Origin: Deltaproteobacteria bacterium
GTDB lineage: Bacteria; Desulfobacterota; Syntrophobacteria; BM002
Assembly (NCBI GenBank): GCA_019309045.1
Contig: JAFDGZ010000002.1
Location: forward strand, 79,435 to 143,434
Direction: 5' to 3'
Length of the DNA: 64,000 nt
In this document: positions 8,000 to 40,484 of the stretch, piece by piece
Layout of the letters: each line of letters begins with the position of its first letter
Position numbering within the stretch: position 1 is the first letter of the stretch
Made by a program: the position numbers and the translations under genes
The notes under the pieces: model-generated
Told to the model about the DNA's origin: nothing
The model's database searches: none
Seen by the model: only the letters and a program-made list of their open reading frames with translations

Positions 8000-8435
8000 G
8001 GTGGCTCTGCTCATCTGCGCCAGCCTGCAGCTGCACAGGAAGTAACCATGAATTGGCAACAGGGCAGTCAGGCCTGCTGGAGCTGCAGGTGCTCGGGGTC
8101 GACTTGCGAGTACAGTAGGCAGCAACGCTGAAGGTCATTTGCTTGCCGAGGAAGCCCTATTATTGCCGTTATGGGTCAGAACTTTCCTGAGAAAGGGCTG
8201 CCAGAGAACGGTTTCATATAACCGAAACAGCGATGGGCAGCAGCCGTCAAACTTGCACCACAGATTAAGGGGGTGCAGGAAGTGTTGCAGTCTCGTTCTC
8301 ATAGGGGATGCTCCCAGTTTTACAGAGAGCAGTGCAGGAGCAGTGCCACATTGGGTAAAATGTGCAACCATATGTGATTATTGAGTTTATTGTCATAGAA
8401 GCAACAGGAAGCTCGCTAGAGACAAGGGCAGGATT

Positions 8436-9324: not shown

Positions 9325-10428
9325 CTACCTCCCGGCTGAGAGCTCTCTTTCCAACTGCCTGCTGTAGTTGGACATCGAGAAGCAGCCCGCAAAGTAAATG
9401 ATGGCCACAAATATATAAGCTTCCACGCTAAAGCCCATCCAGCGAGGATCAGATAGAGTTGCCTGGGTTGTCTTGAGCAGGTCGTAGAGGGCAATAATGA
9501 CCACCAGGGAAGTGTCCTTGAAGGCAGAGATGAGGATTCCCACAGTGGGAGGGATGACGATCTTCAAAGCCTGCGGCAAGACAACCAGCCTCATTGTCTG
9601 GTAGTAATTGAGCCCAATAGATTCAGCTGCCTCGTACTGACCCCGTGGTATCGCCTGGAGCCCACCTCTGACGACCTCGGCAATATAGGCTGCGGTAAAG
9701 AGAATTATGGCAACCTGCGCCCGGAGAATCTTGTTGATGGTGATGCCCTCGGGCAGAAACAAGGGAAATATTATGGATGCCATAAAGAGGAGGCTGATGA
9801 GCGGCACACCTCGAATTGTCTCAATGTAGACAATGCAGAGACATTTGATCGCCGGCATCTTTGACTGGCGGCCAAGAGCGAGGAGCACGCCAAGTGGATA
9901 GGCCAGGGAGAGCCCAAACACCGAAAGCAGCAGGGTAAGAGGCAGGCCGCTCCATTTGGTGCTTTCGACCTTGGCGAGGCCAAAGACGCCGCCACTCATC
10001 AATACACCCATGAGGACCAGGCCAATGAGCCAGCTATAGGTCAGAGGCTTTTTCCAGTAGCGCCGGTTTCTGCTGACCACCAGGAGAAGAATCAAGATCA
10101 ACATGGCCAGCAGCGGCCGCCATTGCAAGTCGTGAGGATAGAAGCCGAAAAGAATGAACCGTATATTCTTGGTTATCACTGACCAGCAGGCGCCGCTGGC
10201 TGCATGACATTGGGCTCCAGTGGTATTCCAGCAGCTGTCGACAAAGGCCCAGCGTATGAAAGGCGGCACGATCTTCCAAAAGGAGTAGATAGTGACAATG
10301 GTGAGCAGAGAATTGAACGGCGAGCTGAAAAGATTGGCTCGCAGCCAGCCGATCACACCAATCTTGGTAACTGGTGGCTTTATGTCTTCGACAGCATGAG
10401 AAGTAGGCATGATTTTATTATCTTTCAA
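9325..10428 (-). CDS. aapM: amino-acid ABC transporter permease (AapM/BztC-like, long N-terminal extension)
   Basis: Multi-TM protein with the EAA-like motif AAESIGLNYYQTMRLVVLPQALKIVIPP. Overlaps the upstream permease by 11 nt. Confidence 0.85.
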   Translation of the reverse strand: MKDNKIMPTSHAVEDIKPPVTKIGVIGWLRANLFSSPFNSLLTIVTIYSFWKIVPPFIRWAFVDSCWNTTGAQCHAASGACWSVITKNIRFILFGFYPHDLQWRPLLAMLILILLLVVSRNRRYWKKPLTYSWLIGLVLMGVLMSGGVFGLAKVESTKWSGLPLTLLLSVFGLSLAYPLGVLLALGRQSKMPAIKCLCIVYIETIRGVPLISLLFMASIIFPLFLPEGITINKILRAQVAIILFTAAYIAEVVRGGLQAIPRGQYEAAESIGLNYYQTMRLVVLPQALKIVIPPTVGILISAFKDTSLVVIIALYDLLKTTQATLSDPRWMGFSVEAYIFVAIIYFAGCFSMSNYSRQLERELSAGR

Positions 10429-33773: not shown

Positions 33774-35939
33774 CTAGTGCAGACCAAAAAGCCGCCCTCC
33801 CTGGTAGATGGCCAAGGCCACCAGCCAGGCGAGCAGTACAGAATAGCCTATGCTGAAAGCGGTCCATTTCCAGGAATTGGTTTCTCTGCGTATTACTGCT
33901 ACGGTTGCCAGACATGGCACGTAAATGAGCACAAATGCCATAAGGGCATACGCCTTTAAAGGAGTCATGCCAGATGCACGCAGAGAACGCTGCAGGGCTT
34001 CACTTTTCTGGTCGGCGTCAGCTCCTACTGCATAGAGCACTCCCAGGGTGCTGACAACTATTTCTTTGGCCACAAAGCCGGTAAGAACTGCCACGCTCGT
34101 GCGCCAGTCGAAGCCGAGAGGAGCGAATATCGGCTCCACAGCATGCCCCAGTCTGCCAAGGTAGCTATTTGCCAACCTGGCTCTCTCACGCTCCACTTCT
34201 GAGAGGACTTGCGGGGCACTGTCCATGCCACCAGGAAGCTGCTGGGTGACTGCCGCTGCTGAGGATTTTCTGGCTGCAAAGTCGTGGGAAGCTGCGTTAG
34301 AGGTGGCCTCGCCTCTCGGGAAAGCAGCAAGGAACCAGATGAGTACGGAGCCAACCAGTATTACCCCACCCATCTTGCGCAGAAAGATGACGCCTCGGTC
34401 CCACATGTGAATGAGCAGGCTTTTCAAGGTGGGCACCCGGTAGGGTGGCAGCTCCATGACAAAAGGAGCCACCTCTCCGCGAAAGAGAGTTACCCTGAAC
34501 AGTTTGCCCATTATAATTGCCAGCACGATGCCAAGTAGATAGATGCTGAAGATGACATTGCCTGCATGCAGGCCAAAGAAGGTTCCTGCGAGCAGGACAT
34601 AAACCGGCAGGCGGGCAGAACAGCTCATAAGGGGGTTGATAAGGATCGTCAGGATTCGATCTCTCTCACTTTCCAGGGTTCTGGTGGCCATGATTGCCGG
34701 AGCATTGCAGCCGAAGCCCATGAGCAGCGGGATGAAAGACTTGCCGTGGAGCCCTATGAGATGCATTACTCTGTCCATGATAAAGGCGGCTCTGGCCAGG
34801 TAGCCGGTGTCTTCGAAAAGGGCGATGCAGAAAAAGAGCAGCAGGATGTTGGGCAAAAAGATAATTACACTTCCCACACCAGCAAGGGCTCCATTTACCA
34901 GCAGATCACGAAGCAGGCCGGCTGGCAGCTGGGCGGCAAGAAAGTCGCCGAGCCAACCGATGGCCGCCTCAATCCACTCCATAGGATAGCTGCCCAGAGT
35001 AAAGGTCAACTGGAACATGGCCCAGATGAGAAGGATAAATATGGGGAAGCCAAGGACTCTATTGGTGAGCAAGAGATCCACCTGCCTGGAGAGATCGAAC
35101 CTGCTAACGGCCGAGACCTTCAGGACCTCCTTGAGGGCACCGCCTATGAAGCCGTAGCGCTGGTCGGTCAGCACCATTTCCGGGTCGTCATGGTAGAAAT
35201 CCAGCAACCTCTTGCGGCTTGCTTCAGCCTGGGCGAGAATCTGACTGCCTATGCCTCCAAGAGTTTTTATCTCCTCCCGGACGGCGCTGTCGTTTTCCAG
35301 CAGCTTCACCGCCAACCAACGAGTAGAGAAGCGTGATCCTATGGAAGGATCCTGCCAGATTACATCCTGGATGTTCTTTATTTCTTTTTCCAGTTCCTGA
35401 CCATAAGAGATGTGAATGTGGCGGCTTACAGTGTCCAGATCTTCGGCCACCTCCACCATCTTGTCGAGAAGCTCTGTTGTGCCCTGGTTTCTTTTGCCCA
35501 CGGTGAAGACAACAGGCACACCGAGCAGGGTGCCCAGTCTGTCAGAGTCGATGTGAAAGCCGCGGGCCTTGGCCACGTCGGCCATATTAAGAACCAGTAT
35601 CAGTTTTACGCCGAGCTCGATCAGTTGAGTGGCGAGATAGAGATTGCGCTCTAGATTGGAGGCATCCACCACATCAACTACCACATCAGGCTTGGCATCT
35701 ATCAGGTAATTGCGGGCGACAATTTCCTCCACCGAGTAGGCAGTGAGGCTGTAGGTACCTGGCAGGTCCACAATGCGCAGCTGTCTGCCTTTATGGCGTA
35801 TGGTGCCTTCCTTTTTTTCAACCGTCACCCCGGGCCAGTTGCCCACGTGCTGGCGAGTGCCAGTCAGATTGTTGAAGATGGTAGTCTTGCCCGAGTTTGG
35901 ATTTCCAGTAAGGGCAACGGTAATAAGACGATGTTTCAC
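33774..35939 (-). CDS. feoB: ferrous iron transporter FeoB (G-domain + membrane domain)
   Basis: GNPNSGKTT G1 motif, DLPGTYSL G3 motif, and a polytopic C-terminal region. Confidence 0.9.
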   Translation of the reverse strand: MKHRLITVALTGNPNSGKTTIFNNLTGTRQHVGNWPGVTVEKKEGTIRHKGRQLRIVDLPGTYSLTAYSVEEIVARNYLIDAKPDVVVDVVDASNLERNLYLATQLIELGVKLILVLNMADVAKARGFHIDSDRLGTLLGVPVVFTVGKRNQGTTELLDKMVEVAEDLDTVSRHIHISYGQELEKEIKNIQDVIWQDPSIGSRFSTRWLAVKLLENDSAVREEIKTLGGIGSQILAQAEASRKRLLDFYHDDPEMVLTDQRYGFIGGALKEVLKVSAVSRFDLSRQVDLLLTNRVLGFPIFILLIWAMFQLTFTLGSYPMEWIEAAIGWLGDFLAAQLPAGLLRDLLVNGALAGVGSVIIFLPNILLLFFCIALFEDTGYLARAAFIMDRVMHLIGLHGKSFIPLLMGFGCNAPAIMATRTLESERDRILTILINPLMSCSARLPVYVLLAGTFFGLHAGNVIFSIYLLGIVLAIIMGKLFRVTLFRGEVAPFVMELPPYRVPTLKSLLIHMWDRGVIFLRKMGGVILVGSVLIWFLAAFPRGEATSNAASHDFAARKSSAAAVTQQLPGGMDSAPQVLSEVERERARLANSYLGRLGHAVEPIFAPLGFDWRTSVAVLTGFVAKEIVVSTLGVLYAVGADADQKSEALQRSLRASGMTPLKAYALMAFVLIYVPCLATVAVIRRETNSWKWTAFSIGYSVLLAWLVALAIYQGGRLFGLH

Positions 35940-36178
35940 TCGGACTCCCCAGAGTGTTTTTCCATGAGTACGTGTTCAGCCTCATCAACTCGCAGAGACA
36001 CATGATATCCTTTGACAATGAGTTCGATGGGATCCCTGAGCGGGGCATATTTTTCAACCAGCACCTCTGTGCCGCGAATAAACCCCATTTCCTGCAAACG
36101 TTTCCTGAAAGGACCACTGCCATTCAGTCTGACGATTACCCCACGTTCACCTTCTTTGAAGCGGCTCAATGGTAACAT
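35936..36178 (-). CDS. feoA: FeoA (SH3-like) protein
   Basis: 80-aa FeoA domain (GERGVIVRLNGSGPFRKRLQEMGFIRGTEVLV). RBS AGGAAA before ATG 36178. Overlaps the feoB start by 4 nt. Confidence 0.8.
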   Translation of the reverse strand: MLPLSRFKEGERGVIVRLNGSGPFRKRLQEMGFIRGTEVLVEKYAPLRDPIELIVKGYHVSLRVDEAEHVLMEKHSGESE

Positions 36179-36276
36179 GTCAATTTCCTGTGTCTTTGCT
36201 CTGCTGATCATTGTGTTGACATCCGTCACCTCCGCCACAATCTCCTGTGCTGGCGAGCTGGCGTCAGGTAAATGGT

Positions 36277-36984
36277 TCAAGTCTCCAGTTTGTCTTGCGG
36301 CAAATTGTTGCGGGGAGAGACGAGAATCTTGTGGCCCAGGCCGTGTCCCAAGGCCAGGCGACTGCCTCGGAAGGCAAGAATAATGGGTCCGGGAGCACTC
36401 GATTTGATGACTTCCACTATAGTTCCGGGTGTAAGCCCCATTTCTGCCAACCGCTGTTGCACCTGACGGCCGCCAGCCAGGCGCTCGATGTATACCTTTT
36501 CGCCGGGCAGCACAAAAGACAGAGGCACCACAGGTTGTCTCTGTTTGCGGCATCTGGCGCAAATCCCGTAGAGTTCCATCTTATGGTGCAGCAAGGAAAA
36601 GTTGTATTGAAGGGCAATTTGCCTTTGCAGTGCTTCCATTTCAGGGTTGTGAAATTCAAGTATTCTACCGCACTTGGCGCAGATCAGGTGATCGTGGTGC
36701 CATCCTATATGGCGATGCTCATATTGGAGCTGCTGTCCTTCGAAATGCTTCTTGAAGGCATAGCCGTAGCGACAGAGCAGATCAAGCGTTTCAGTGATGA
36801 ACTGCTCATCGAAATTCTCACCCCTTTGCCGCAATTGTTCTCGCAGGTCACTGGCGGTCACATGGTCAGGAGCACGCAGGAATGCTTCGAGAACCTTCAA
36901 ACGTTTGTCGCTCTCATTGAGGCCGTGCTCCAGGCAGATTGCCGTAAATTCCTCTTTTTCCCGCTGATGAAGCTTCTCAATCAT
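36277..36984 (-). CDS. Fur-family transcriptional regulator fused to a C-terminal FeoA/SH3-like domain
   Basis: N-terminal Fur domain (winged helix; HHDHLICAKCGRILEF and C..C metal site). Residues from about 155 onward form a FeoA-like domain (GEKVYIERLAGGRQVQQRLAEMGLTPGTIVEVI). One continuous frame with no stop. Confidence 0.75.
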   Translation of the reverse strand: MIEKLHQREKEEFTAICLEHGLNESDKRLKVLEAFLRAPDHVTASDLREQLRQRGENFDEQFITETLDLLCRYGYAFKKHFEGQQLQYEHRHIGWHHDHLICAKCGRILEFHNPEMEALQRQIALQYNFSLLHHKMELYGICARCRKQRQPVVPLSFVLPGEKVYIERLAGGRQVQQRLAEMGLTPGTIVEVIKSSAPGPIILAFRGSRLALGHGLGHKILVSPRNNLPQDKLET

Positions 36985-36985
36985 A

Positions 36986-37510
36986 CTACCTCGTAACTCC
37001 TTGCTGATCCCTGGCAGATGTTTCCTTTTCCGCAGGATTGTATGTCTGGCCCCGCCTGGAAACCAGGTTGAGGGAAGAGTGATGCGCTCTGCACTTGGCG
37101 CAGTAGCCATATACTTCGAGTTTGTGAGCGGTTACCAAAAAATTATACTGCCTTCCCAGCTTTTCTTCCAAAACAGCCATTGAGTTGTCAATGAACTCGA
37201 CAATTTTGTCGCATCCCAAACAGCGCAAGTGACAGTGGTGATCGTGTCCATAGATGTGTTCGTAGTGCATGTGACCGTCCTGGAAAAAAGCCTCCTGGAT
37301 GAGGCCGCACTCGAGAAGCAGAGGGATAGTGCGATAAATGGTAGCTTTAGAGATTTTCTCATTTCGGCGTTGCAGCTCATGATAGAGTTCGTCCACGTCG
37401 AAATGGTCATGGGTGGCAAAGATGGTCCTTATGACCTGTTCACGTTCAGGGGTATTCCGAAGTTTCTTCTGTCTGATGAATTCACGGAAGATTTCAATTT
37501 CGTTTTTCAT
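36986..37510 (-). CDS. fur: Fur-family transcriptional regulator
   Basis: Fur DNA-binding helix (TPEREQVIRTIFATHDHFDVDELY) and metal sites HHCHLRCLGC...CAKC. ATG 37510 with a GAGG RBS. Confidence 0.8.
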   Translation of the reverse strand: MKNEIEIFREFIRQKKLRNTPEREQVIRTIFATHDHFDVDELYHELQRRNEKISKATIYRTIPLLLECGLIQEAFFQDGHMHYEHIYGHDHHCHLRCLGCDKIVEFIDNSMAVLEEKLGRQYNFLVTAHKLEVYGYCAKCRAHHSSLNLVSRRGQTYNPAEKETSARDQQGVTR

Positions 37511-38192
37511 TGGAACCTCACAACAAAAAATGCGCCCTTTGGCAAACAAACCTCGTGGCTGCCTTGGTGCAATCTTAGGCAACCACCGCGAGCTACTGTT
37601 ATCAGAACCACGGAGGCAAGCAGTGGGCTTGACAGCCTCCTGGGATCAACTTCGAAAAATTATTGCAAGCATTTCTCATTAACCGAAAGGCCATGCTGTT
37701 GTCAAGGAAAAACTGAAATTTACCGATACTCCTACTTTTAGAAAATTTGCCAGAAAGTTCCCCTGAATAGTATGAACAACTTGTTGTAGCCAAGTGTGGA
37801 TCTTAGTTTAACATATTCTCAATAAAAGGAAATCCTATCTCCAGTCTGTTGCTGTGCAGGGGGTCCATTATGGCGATGTCCTCTCTTGCAGAAGGTTCAG
37901 GTAATTGTCTCGGGTATTGATGCCCTGCACAGAGGTACCTCAGGATGGTGCCGCGGTCAGCTCTGCCCAGGAAGGGCATCAGGGACACTTAAACTAAAGG
38001 GCTCTGAAGGCCATTATGACAACAGCATGGTCTGCAGTATTGTGAGCGATGGCAAGTTGTTTGGCCTGGGTGAAGAAGTACCCAGAGTTATCTGGATTTT
38101 CTCAGCGCTGAGTAGCGCGGCGGCCCGAGGTGTTGATGGCTCGAGCGAACTCCTCATGGATTGACGGGCGAAAATAGTGTATTTGTGAAGTT

Positions 38193-40484
38193 ATGAAGGC
38201 AGCAACAGTTGGCAGCATTGCTCTGATCGGCCTGGCGGCAACCGTAGGGCAAATCATTGTCTTGCGAGAGCTGCTCACAGTCTTCTCGGGCAGTGAGTTG
38301 TCCCTGGCGCTGGTTCTGGGTTCCTGGTTGTTGTGGACCGCCCTGGGCAGTAGTGCAGCGGCCAGGGTGATTCATCGACTGCGGCGGCAGCAACGGTTTT
38401 TCGGCTGGCTGCAGTTGAGTTGTGGTGTGGTGCTCGTGGGCACTGTGTTGGTAATTCGGGCGCTGCGGCCGCTTCTGCACATTGGTCCCGGGGAGCTGGT
38501 CACACTCGGCCAGATGCTCTTTATAGCTTTTTCCTGCCTGGCTCCCTTTTGTCTGCTTGCAGGTTTTCTTTTCACCCTTGCCTGCCAGTTGCTGTCGATT
38601 CGCCTGCCGCAGTGGTCGCGCTCCCCAGGGTTGGTCTACTTTCTGGAGGGGTTGGGCGCCGGCATCGGCGGCCTCGTCTTCAGTGTGGTACTGGTTCACA
38701 GGTTCAACGTGATCTCAATCGTTGCGGGCGTGGCCATCTGTCTCTGCCTCGGCGGCTATGCTGTGGCACGATCCGAAGACGGGAAAGGGAGGAGCAGTCC
38801 TCTCCTTTTTGTGTTGGTGGCTGGCATGCTGCTGGCTGTACAGTTGTGGGGACGGCAAGTGGATTTGTTGAGCCGGAGCTGGCAGTGGCATGGATTCGAA
38901 TTGTTGGACTCTGAGGACACTGTCTATGGACAAATTTCAGTGGTTTCCTCTGGAGGGCAGATCTCCTTTTTTGAAAATGGCCTGTGGAACTTTACAGTGC
39001 CAGATCTGCTTACTGCCGAGCAGGCGGTGCACTTTGCTCTGCTGGAACATCCAGCGCCAAGAACAGTCCTGCTTCTGGGGGGTGGAATTTCCGGCACCTT
39101 GCGGGAAGTACTCAGGCAGAAATCAGTGGAGCGGCTCTACTATGTGGAGCTGGACCCGCGCCTGGTTGCCCTGGGCAAGCGTTATCTGGACCATGAGGTG
39201 GTTGCCGCCCTGGATGATCCCCGGGTTGAGGTGCATAATGTGGACGCTCGTTCTTTTCTTGCCAATACGCCAGATTCCTATGATGTTATTATGGTGAATC
39301 TTCCAGAACCATTCACTGCCCAGCTCAACCGCTTCTACACAGTGGAATTCTTTAGGCTGGCAGCGAGCAGACTCGCAGATGCTGGAGTGCTGGCTTTCAG
39401 GGTGAGCGCAGCCGAAAATACCCTGGGACCTTTGCAGGCGGCTTACGTGAAACTGCTCTTCAACACAGCCGAAAAGGTATTTCCTGCGGTTGTTCTCTTC
39501 CCAGGCCAGACCGCCCGGTTTTTTTGTGCCAAGATGGGCAAATTTTTGACAAGAGATCCTGAGGTGCTGGTGCAGAGAATCCGCCAGCGACACCTGCAGC
39601 TCAAATATGTGCAGGATTATTACCTCTTGTGGGATCTTTCGCTGGAGCGGCAGGCAAATTTCTTGGAGATGATCGAAGATACGGGTTACTCACGGGTGAA
39701 CACGGATTTGCAACCAAGGGGATACTTCGCAAACTTGCTGATCTGGGGCAGTCAGTTTTCCGAGGCCATTCCCAGAATATACAGGGCGCTGAGTGCAAAG
39801 CGCCTCTGGTTCGTGGCGGTGGGCGGTGCTGTTGCTGTCGTTTGCCTAGGTCTCATTCGCAGGCGCAAGAAGGGGATGCCCTCAGCGCCCAGGACCACAA
39901 TTCTTTTGGGAGTGGCTGTGTTTGGCTATACGGAAATGAGCCTGGAATTTATCATAGTGTTGAGTTATCAGATTTTTTTCGGTTCTCTGTATCAGCAGAT
40001 CGGTTTGCTGGTCACCCTGTACATGATAGGCCTGGCTGCAGGAAGTGCCCTGTTGAGCCACTATCCCACAAGGCCAAGGAGATTGTTTCCTGTGCTCATC
40101 TGCTGCCAGGCAATGCTGGCTCTTCTGTGTCTGGCCCTGGCTGCCGTATTCTATCTGTTTGAGGCTCACTCTACAGCGGTGACGGTTTCGGCGATGGCCA
40201 GACTGGCCTTTTATGTGATGAGTCTGACGGCTGGCATGCTTGGAGGAACCCATTTTCCCTTGGCCAACAGGCTTCTGGCCGCGCAGCGCCCAGGAATGGC
40301 AAAAGTAGCTGGCATGGTATATGGTGTCGATCTCGTCGGCTCATTTGTGGGCTCTCTGCTGATCGCCCTGGTGTTCATCGTGGCCCTGGGAGTTCTGCAG
40401 AGCCTCCTGATGTTGGCCCTGGTAAATGTGGCAGCAGTGATGCTGCTGAGCATGAGGAGAGAGTGGCTGCCAGAGGGACCATAA
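38193..40484 (+). CDS. polytopic membrane protein with central spermidine synthase-like (aminopropyltransferase) domain, 'fused MFS/spermidine synthase' type
   Basis: About 7 TM helices N-terminal, then a PABS-like domain (LLLGGGISGTLREV...YYVELDP...YDVIMVNLPEP), then a further ~6 TM helices C-terminal. Confidence 0.8.
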   Translation: MKAATVGSIALIGLAATVGQIIVLRELLTVFSGSELSLALVLGSWLLWTALGSSAAARVIHRLRRQQRFFGWLQLSCGVVLVGTVLVIRALRPLLHIGPGELVTLGQMLFIAFSCLAPFCLLAGFLFTLACQLLSIRLPQWSRSPGLVYFLEGLGAGIGGLVFSVVLVHRFNVISIVAGVAICLCLGGYAVARSEDGKGRSSPLLFVLVAGMLLAVQLWGRQVDLLSRSWQWHGFELLDSEDTVYGQISVVSSGGQISFFENGLWNFTVPDLLTAEQAVHFALLEHPAPRTVLLLGGGISGTLREVLRQKSVERLYYVELDPRLVALGKRYLDHEVVAALDDPRVEVHNVDARSFLANTPDSYDVIMVNLPEPFTAQLNRFYTVEFFRLAASRLADAGVLAFRVSAAENTLGPLQAAYVKLLFNTAEKVFPAVVLFPGQTARFFCAKMGKFLTRDPEVLVQRIRQRHLQLKYVQDYYLLWDLSLERQANFLEMIEDTGYSRVNTDLQPRGYFANLLIWGSQFSEAIPRIYRALSAKRLWFVAVGGAVAVVCLGLIRRRKKGMPSAPRTTILLGVAVFGYTEMSLEFIIVLSYQIFFGSLYQQIGLLVTLYMIGLAAGSALLSHYPTRPRRLFPVLICCQAMLALLCLALAAVFYLFEAHSTAVTVSAMARLAFYVMSLTAGMLGGTHFPLANRLLAAQRPGMAKVAGMVYGVDLVGSFVGSLLIALVFIVALGVLQSLLMLALVNVAAVMLLSMRREWLPEGP

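Follow-up and report, generated by a model that had tools for sequence, protein, structure and literature searches.

The DNA analysed here, a stretch of 64,000 nucleotides (nt) from contig JAFDGZ010000002.1 of a Deltaproteobacteria bacterium, an uncultured relative of sulfate reducers (positions 79,435 to 143,434; the window, meaning this whole stretch), carries a feo operon in which a Fur-type metal-sensing module is joined in one frame to a FeoA domain. The Fur module keeps every metal ligand of its family and has lost the residues that canonical Fur uses to read DNA. Anaerobic bacteria import ferrous iron mainly through Feo. We propose that the fusion is a Fur-derived Fe2+ sensor that would act by protein contacts, with iron feedback on the Feo transporter as its favoured role, a reading to which we give a probability of roughly 40%. 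The genes lie on the minus strand in the order fur1, fur*::feoA, feoA and feoB, all four co-directional, an order that had been proposed from the letters alone and was borne out by gene calls and Pfam. In the following, fur1 denotes the upstream gene for a Fur of 174 amino acids (aa), Fur* the Fur module of the fusion, FeoA1 the fused FeoA domain and FeoA2 the stand-alone FeoA; labels of the type P0051 and L081 refer to relative proteins and related loci, respectively.

Architecture and distribution of the fusion

The fusion gene (36984..36277, minus strand) encodes 235 aa, in which Pfam FUR (residues 20-139; 5.9e-23, 81.7 bits against a cut-off of 23.1) and Pfam FeoA (residues 153-224; 5.7e-18, 65.2 bits against a cut-off of 23) occupy one frame with no stop between them, as the sequence-only reading had stated. 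The Fur* module (residues 1-148; 36541..36984, minus) comprises a winged helix and a dimerisation and metal-binding domain, and aligned to E. coli Fur (EcFur, 8j6w) at 1.9e-19. An AlphaFold model of the fusion reached a predicted local distance difference test score (pLDDT) of 88.8 and a predicted template modelling (TM) score (pTM) of 0.57. With Foldseek, the first ~150 residues of this model matched H. pylori Fur (HpFur, 2xig) with a TM score relative to the target (TMt) of 0.68 and EcFur 8j6w with a TMt of 0.72 and 3.6 Å root-mean-square deviation (rmsd). FeoA1 (36313..36528, minus) is an SH3-like beta-barrel encoded alongside feoB. The earlier assignment of the C-terminal region to FeoA holds in both the profile search and the fold: the FeoA structure 3e19 was matched at 1.3e-13 by sequence and, by fold, with a TM score of 0.88, an rmsd of 1.0 Å and 44% identity. 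The domain has the RLxEMGLxxG motif in common with FeoA2 of the same operon, to which it is 38% identical, and it matched no solved DtxR-family SH3 domain in sequence and fold searches. No solved chain in the Protein Data Bank (PDB) covered both the Fur and the FeoA parts in the comparisons by fold and by sequence.

A sequencing or assembly error that removed a stop codon between fur and feoA would produce the same open frame, and we regard its probability as negligible. One relative, L081/P0051, is in fact split: it is a frameshifted copy that falls into a 188-aa Fur and a 52-aa FeoA fragment. It is the lone exception among 101 annotated related loci, in 100 of which the frame is open, and two contigs have yielded records of the identical 235-aa protein (MBW1979678.1 and MBW2069843.1, annotated as 'transcriptional repressor [Deltaproteobacteria bacterium]'). 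The linker is conserved as well, and the FeoA1 domain is under selection, with a mean pairwise identity of 83% among orthologs. Because the frame is conserved across genomes and independent samples, the missed-stop explanation was rejected, and the earlier claim of a genuine fusion is upheld.

The family is large. Both Pfam domains are present in 112 of the best 120 clusters at 90% identity, with identities down to 37%. A profile search of 1.84 billion representatives at 50% identity returned 259 clusters with E<=1e-30. Among the 150 best representatives, 97 were matched in one stretch across both domains. A metagenome scan yielded at least 590 stretches encoding relatives. The carriers are mostly Desulfobacterota (Syntrophobacteria, Desulfarculaceae and Ca. 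Adiutrix), with a variant in Phycisphaerae. Databases label these proteins only as 'Fur family' or 'transcriptional repressor'.

Metal ligands and DNA-reading residues of the two Fur paralogs

All 15 Fur ligand positions are intact in Fur* (H41, E89, H90, H92, H96, H97, D98, H99, C102, C105, E110, E117, H134, C142 and C145). They include the Cys4 zinc site (C102, C105, C142 and C145), and all 15 columns, which cover this site and two regulatory sites, are invariant in 100 of 100 family sequences. The residues that read DNA have fared differently. Lys15, Tyr56 and Arg57 (numbering of M. gryphiswaldense Fur, MgFur) are highly conserved across Fur proteins, and in MgFur the R57A exchange abolishes DNA binding and Y56A leaves it very weak (PMC4506495). 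A gapless alignment to Fur1 and a HMMER alignment to E. coli Fur both place Asn23, Thr64 and Glu65 of Fur* at these positions, the latter two within a non-canonical 'recognition' helix (EQFITETLDLLCR, residues 60-72; 36769..36807, minus). Not one of 100 family members has the Tyr-Arg pair at the Tyr56/Arg57 positions, and at the Lys15 position Lys and Arg are likewise absent from all of them. Among 13 orthologs, whose operators are nearly identical, position 64 is variable (T/A/D/E/G); E65 and D68 are invariant acidic residues. Of the 'complete Fur DNA-binding and metal-binding core' that the sequence-only reading had seen in the fusion, the metal-binding part stands, whereas the DNA-binding part lacks its reading residues. 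On this evidence, Fur* would be a complete metal sensor, but one that does not read DNA in the canonical way. That it has lost the DNA-reading residues and kept fold and ligands argues that the fusion most likely signals by protein contacts and is not a second independent repressor.

Fur1 (37510..36986, minus; 174 aa; Pfam FUR 1.7e-27, 96.4 bits against the cut-off of 23.1) has the residues that the fusion lacks, with Arg18 at the Lys15 position followed by Tyr59 and Arg60. It contains two CxxC pairs, and its recognition helix, SKAT[IV]YRTIPLLLE, is invariant in 13 orthologs bar the one I/V position. Its departures from the ligand pattern are HHCH for HHDH and an Ala at the Glu107/108 position; judged by its sequence, Fur1 appears to fit the canonical Fur family fully. 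The comparison of the two paralogs suggests a division of labour in which DNA would be read by Fur1, and sensing or coupling would fall to the fusion.

Nothing in the data speaks for the division that had been raised beforehand, by metal or by peroxide. In the ..EF motif, either paralog has a Glu as in Fur and not an Asp as in PerR, and nothing marks one of them as a peroxide, zinc or haem paralog; neither reached any of the NCBIfam equivalog cut-offs for Fur, PerR, Zur or Irr (best scores of 72.9 to 87 bits against 146 to 220). The net charge of the Fur* DNA-binding domain was dropped as an argument, the corresponding domain of E. coli Fur also being net negative (by eye).

Fur1 of the window ends in a 30-aa C-terminal tail (AHHSSLNLVSRRGQTYNPAEKETSARDQQGVTR; 36986-37078) that is unique to it; the 13 orthologs end at ..KCKVHQ. 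The tail is a read-through of the fur1-fur* spacer of 25-90 nt, and the fur1 stop, TAG, now lies 1 nt before the ATG of the fusion. One further mutation at this stop would give a Fur-Fur-FeoA protein.

Operator and promoter of the operon

Twelve orthologous loci share the arrangement TTGACA-N17-TAyTAT-CGCAA..TTCTCAATAAGGAT..ATG within otherwise unalignable upstream DNA. A one-strand position weight matrix (PWM) derived from orthologs found its best match among 127,950 window positions at 37659-37684, inside the AT-rich stretch (37640-37690) that the sequence-only reading had put forward as a Fur-box candidate; this first match was in the opposite orientation because the operator is a palindrome. 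Its 23-bp consensus, TTATTGnnA-N5-TnnCAATAA, rests on 43 distinct sites from four locus classes, and positions G6 and C18 are complementary in 43 of 43, with a spacing that matches that of the guanines in a 7-1-7 Fur box. In 695 kb, 86 palindrome matches with at most two mismatches were counted where shuffles led us to expect 23, and the on-target matches have 0-1 mismatches. In the window, operator O1 (TTAATGAGAAATGCTTGCAATAA on the minus strand; 37660..37682) deviates at a single position from TTATTG-N11-CAATAA. With a symmetrised PWM trained without the window sequence (shuffle maximum 15.2), O1 scored 19.2, the second-best value in the window, which bears out the candidate.

A putative -35 hexamer, TTGACA (37700..37705, minus), lies 17 nt upstream of O1. 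The layout cCTTGACAA-N14-cg-O1 is common to the window and to L092, L095, L096 and L099, with O1 starting at the expected -10 box, and cCTTGACAA itself is a conserved feature of every orthologous promoter, with 17 nt between it and the -10 box or operator. Operator O2 (TTATTGAGAATATGTTAAACTAA on the minus strand; 37803..37825), 143 nt upstream of O1, combines a perfect left arm with a degenerate right arm and scored 10.8 with the symmetrised PWM, third in the window and below the shuffle maximum. An O2-like site is found ~140-155 nt upstream in L092, L095, L096 and L099, for example TTATTGAGAAACATTCTCAAACA in L099. A generic sigma-70 and terminator scan was uninformative, with counts equal to the shuffle expectation; it missed the conserved promoter because the -10 box is weak or overlaps the operator.

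The operator core, TGAnAAT-n-ATTnTCA, is a 7-1-7 Fur-type box. It differs by one base per half-site from the delta-proteobacterial dFUR box WTGAAAATNATTTTCAW, which is found upstream of feoAB and fur genes (PMC545781). The canonical E. coli-type Fur box was considered and set aside, since the operator shares with it only an ATTATC-like hexamer and fits the delta-proteobacterial box. The invariant G/C pair of the operator sits where Arg57 contacts guanine in canonical complexes (PMC4506495). Because the operator stays constant while the Fur* helix changes between locus classes, a canonical Fur would fit as its reader better than the fusion. From this comparative genomics we consider it probable that Fur1 with Fe2+ represses the operon at O1 and O2. 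Fe2+-loaded Fur1 would bind O1, and probably O2, and since O1 overlaps the -10/+1 region (TTGACA-N17-O1), binding would shut off fur1, fur*::feoA, feoA and feoB.

No operator was found in the fur*::feoA-feoA spacer, nor was the palindrome found upstream of the lone family members or of L079, L076 and L077. Neither the 150-nt leader nor any other part of the window had an Rfam match at or above the gathering score of the family.

Downstream of the fusion follow feoA (36178..35936, minus, with an alternative start at 36211; Pfam FeoA 1.1e-18) and feoB (35939..33774, minus; Pfam FeoB_N 7e-67, FeoB_Cyto, two Gate domains and FeoB_C), whose GTG start is overlapped by the feoA stop. A Shine-Dalgarno-like GAGG or AGGA precedes each start codon of the operon. 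Elsewhere in the window there is no other Fur, DtxR, FeoA or FeoB gene. The neighbouring genes encode a PAS histidine kinase, two methyltransferases and, in divergent orientation, a membrane protein with a spermidine-synthase domain. The last of these (763 aa; 38193-40484, plus strand) is divergent from fur1 in nearly all loci of the fur1 class. It may belong to the same regulon, as O2 lies between both genes and is conserved in the closest relatives.

Several further features of the non-coding DNA were observed. The leader of ~150 nt between O1 and the fur1 start (37511-37659) contains the GC-rich hairpins GGAGGC...GCCTCC and GTGGTTGCC...GGCAGCCAC; unlike this arrangement, the operator of L002-L013 abuts the ribosome-binding site. 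In L003-L013 and L086-L097, the element GGAGTTCCACTCA-N5-GGTTCCC-N-GTTACAAT occupies the first ~40 nt after the fur*::feoA stop, at the start of a 103-nt spacer, and is absent from the window counterpart (36179-36276). In those relatives it could serve as an internal promoter (TTCCAC-N17-TACAAT) or fold into an RNA hairpin. At the far end of the window, the palindrome ATATTGCAATTTAATATCAATTA at 28-50, with TTGACA at 15-20, scored 20.7 by the operator matrix, above the fur1 site and every shuffle. The -10 region and start codon of a 334-aa IS200/Y1_Tnp-like open reading frame (ORF; 49-1053, plus; Pfam 3.8e-8) both overlap this palindrome, which could reflect Fur-box control of a transposase-like gene or a chance match in AT-rich DNA. 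In L155, an operator-like palindrome (8359-8381) lies upstream of three tandem FeoA-like matches (9708-10412) that are situated downstream of feoB.

Genomic context and further fusions

Directly downstream of the fusion gene, 76 of 95 decidable loci have feoA or feoB, 4 have a gene with an SH3 domain and 15 have neither. Directly upstream, where this could be decided, a canonical fur1 was found in 44 loci, a Zn_ribbon_8 gene in 21 and nothing recognised in a further 21. The residues at the Tyr56/Arg57 positions of Fur* track this context, with x-Glu next to fur1, Lys-Lys next to Zn_ribbon_8 and Arg-Gln in lone genes. Of 47 loci with Glu65, 41 have an upstream Fur1 or fused DtxR; of 39 loci with another residue there, 3 do (Fisher p=2e-14, and p=3e-8 once de-replicated at 90%).

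In the Zn_ribbon_8 class (L121-L124 and L134-L161), the upstream gene is a small FmdB-like one, and promoter and operator lie between it and fur*. A secreted SH3_3/SH3_4 protein recurs downstream of fur* or of feoB (L076-L078; L118, L120, L125 and L165). The chromosome CP070689.1, a metagenome-assembled genome, contains two fur1-fur*::feoA copies (L013 and L014) with identical upstream regions; in L014 no feoA or feoB follows the fusion, and the match stops at residue 216.

The Fur*-FeoA module has been built into larger proteins. Phycisphaerae, among other bacteria, have a DtxR::Fur*::FeoA form in which Fur*-FeoA follows a complete DtxR unit for DNA binding and dimerisation (Fe_dep_repress, Fe_dep_repr_C, FUR and FeoA in P0180, P0183, P0189, P0200, P0206 and P0230), and in L084 such a protein heads an oprB-feoA-feoB operon. 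Upstream of the triple fusions, a search for DtxR-type boxes gave weak TTAGG-like matches, with two usable loci only. In a second form, FUR is followed by two FeoA domains (P0055, P0058, P0121 and P0133, plus a single ORF in seven loci), and the second FeoA of these Fur*-FeoA1-FeoA2 proteins is a homolog of the stand-alone FeoA of the window. A third form, P0213, places a FeoB_associated membrane peptide before FUR and FeoA. Read as Rosetta stones, these fusions would link the module to a separate DNA-binding metalloregulator on the one hand and to FeoA2 and the membrane Feo machinery on the other. P0194 and the six triple fusions listed above end in a conserved basic motif, approximately R-R-x-R-H-R-H-x-x-D-R, that is absent from the window protein.

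The link to a DNA-binding metalloregulator raises the possibility that the fusion is a regulator of a regulator: Fur*-FeoA would bind Fur1 in a hetero-oligomer, on or off DNA, as a co-repressor or anti-repressor, adding a second tier of iron sensing or cooperativity, with FeoA supplying the dimer-dimer contact. Such a role seems unlikely to us, for all that several observations accord with it. The DtxR unit is fused to Fur*-FeoA in the operon position that fur1 and fur*::feoA hold here, fur1 and the fusion gene are tightly adjacent, and Glu65 co-occurs with Fur1. There are also precedents in a Fur paralog without a DNA-binding domain that was proposed to act through heterodimers (PMC545781), in the YlaN-Fur complex model deposited in the PDB (9a4a) and in the FeoA-domain oligomerisation known in MtsR (PMC6698748). 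However, around half of the family members lack a Fur1 or DtxR partner in the vicinity, and it is the transporter, not Fur1, that the FeoA2 and FeoB-associated peptide fusions point to.

The same material bears on a passive fusion, in which feoA was joined to the preceding fur and the halves work independently with no new coupling. FeoA1 does resemble a normal FeoA, and it is common for an operon to have two feoA genes, with feoA-feoA-feoB listed by one study (PMC545781) and multiple FeoAs noted by another (PMC8749426). Against this stand the age of the fusion, which is kept at identities down to 34-37%, its retention even in loci without feo genes, the reuse of the module in further fusions and a Fur half that is not ordinary in having lost its DNA-reading residues. 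We rate a passive fusion as very improbable.

Comparison with known systems

In its domain order, the fusion resembles DtxR, IdeR, MtsR and PgMntR, in which a dimeric metal-sensing module with a winged helix is followed by a C-terminal FeoA/SH3 domain and which often control metal uptake genes. The sequence-only reading had taken this for a parallel without homology, and the domain searches agree: the fusion has no Pfam match to Fe_dep_repress or Fe_dep_repr_C, domains that occur only in the triple-fusion relatives, and FeoA1 is nearest to stand-alone FeoA. In contrast to the DtxR family, the fusion is built on a Fur scaffold that has a Cys4 zinc site and His/Glu sites of the Fur type, and the sensing domains are not homologous. 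FeoA1 is closest to transporter FeoA, and the DNA-reading residues of the scaffold are missing, so that the shared domain order is an analogy and not a sign of membership. Regulatory FeoA domains bind a proline-rich linker in DtxR and mediate dimer-dimer oligomerisation on DNA in MtsR (PMC6698748). About half of the fusion family has a proline pattern, R-x-P-x-x-P-L, just before and into the FeoA domain, with QRQPVVP as its counterpart in the window (residues 148-154; 36523-36543). It recalls the proline-rich linker bound by the DtxR SH3 domain, but is too near FeoA1 for binding within the same chain.

With canonical Fur of E. coli, M. gryphiswaldense and H. pylori the fusion shares the FUR domain, the fold (TM 0.68-0.72 relative to the target) and all ligands; it differs in lacking the Lys15, Tyr56 and Arg57 counterparts and in the additional FeoA domain. 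Its location in a feo operon and an operator resembling WTGAAAATNATTTTCAW are features of the delta-proteobacterial FUR regulon (PMC545781). The Fur paralog without a DNA-binding domain mentioned above, FUR2 of Desulfovibrio desulfuricans (PMC545781), is missing the whole N-terminal domain and has no FeoA, whereas Fur* keeps a conserved winged helix. The FeoAB protein of Bacteroides fragilis is similar in that FeoA is covalently tethered to a functional partner, and different in that the tether here is a metal sensor. FeoC, a small winged-helix accessory of gamma-proteobacterial Feo, acts on FeoB rather than, or besides, DNA. Its likeness to the fusion is one of function only: Fur* is a full Fur module with three metal sites, and no FeoC match was among the Pfam hits of the fusion at E<=0.01.

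Full-text searches of the literature gave no description of a fused Fur-FeoA protein; what matched 'Fur-feoA' was the Fur-feoAB1 operator complex. Proteins in which FeoA is joined to a regulator or another non-Feo protein were taken out of the data of one Feo survey (PMC8980893), and another goes no further than the remark that in some cases 'FeoA has an additional domain' (PMC8749426). Each of the parts is familiar; in the literature that could be searched, we saw no account of their combination, of the lost DNA-reading residues, of a pairing with canonical Fur or of the DtxR-Fur-FeoA relatives.

Functional interpretation

FeoA binds the N-terminal G-domain of FeoB (NFeoB) in nucleotide-dependent fashion and slows GTP hydrolysis, and natural FeoA-FeoB fusions have been used to show this contact (PMC8980893). 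As FeoA1 is of the transporter type and NFeoB is a known binding partner of FeoA, we favour iron feedback on the transporter as the role of the fusion. We propose the following hypothetical sequence, in which (i) FeoA1 would dock on FeoA2 and on NFeoB; (ii) a metal-driven movement of the Fur module would, in a direction that we infer, make FeoA1 available or unavailable; and (iii) cytosolic Fe2+ would thereby exert a fast feedback on transport, above the slower transcriptional control.

Several observations weigh against this proposal, and most of them lean towards a DtxR-like repressor built on a Fur scaffold. Fur*-FeoA would then itself bind DNA in an Fe2+-dependent manner through the non-canonical helix, its FeoA domain would serve allostery or dimer-dimer oligomerisation, and Fur1 would be a second regulator with another input or other targets. 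The model contains the full Fur fold, including the winged helix, which is under purifying selection (78% mean pairwise identity among orthologs), meaning that this domain still has a function. Arg28 corresponds to Arg20, a contact to the DNA backbone, and is present in 97 of 100 members; together with the conserved winged helix this makes non-canonical DNA binding possible. Some subfamilies, none with an adjacent Fur1, have basic or polar residues on the helix at the Tyr56/Arg57 positions (Lys-Lys or Arg-Gln). The association of Glu65 with Fur1 is confounded by phylogeny, since the classes are also clades.

Context adds to these points. The 15 of 95 loci with neither a feo nor an SH3-domain gene downstream include 10 that have no recognised upstream partner either, and the two lone loci that were inspected, L130 and L153, lie in housekeeping contexts, as for a stand-alone regulator; L076-L078 have an SH3-domain gene where the downstream feo gene would be. 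In the Zn_ribbon_8 class, the same operator stands directly before fur*, with no fur1 upstream. Moreover, the FeoA domain of DtxR-family regulators works inside the regulator and not on FeoB, as in MtsR, which oligomerises on DNA through its FeoA domains (PMC6698748), and the public annotation of the fusion is that of a transcriptional repressor.

We nevertheless judge a DtxR-like repressor to be somewhat unlikely. The counterparts of Lys15, Tyr56 and Arg57 are gone in 100 of 100 sequences, with an invariant Glu in place of Arg57 in the subfamily of the window, and it is the loss of this arginine, in R57A, that abolishes DNA binding in canonical Fur (PMC4506495). The operator keeps the G/C pair read by Arg57 while the Fur* helix shifts from x-Glu to Lys-Lys, a canonical Fur is encoded immediately upstream in 44 loci, and the DtxR::Fur*::FeoA proteins would have no need of a second DNA-binding domain.

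Beyond the proposed feedback on transport, the fusion might be a hub of transporter-coupled signalling, in which FeoA1 sits on FeoB and FeoA2 at the membrane, the dimerisation surface engages Fur1 or the fused DtxR, and Fur*-FeoA senses or directly takes over newly entered Fe2+. We offer this composite picture as a speculation with rather low odds. If true, uptake flux, and not only the bulk iron pool, would set transporter activity and feo transcription; the system would be the iron counterpart of the transporter-tethered regulators Mlc-PtsG and MalT-MalK, and the DtxR-Fur*-FeoA1, Fur*-FeoA1-FeoA2 and FeoB-associated peptide-Fur*-FeoA1 proteins would be its footprint.

The role of FeoA and the way in which FeoB is switched off at iron sufficiency are still debated (PMC8980893; PMC8749426). 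Here, a complete Fur-type sensing module is covalently and stably joined to FeoA across hundreds of lineages, in a small soluble protein that comes with a defined operator and a set of candidate partners (Fur1, FeoA2 and NFeoB), which makes a relay of iron status to FeoB by FeoA directly testable. The annotation as 'transcriptional repressor' may be wrong for a subfamily without the DNA-reading residues of Fur. As the DtxR and the Fur scaffold have each gained a FeoA domain, with some proteins carrying both, we argue that FeoA/SH3 may be a general output or coupling device of iron sensors, and these domains would then not be just an accessory of the transporter.

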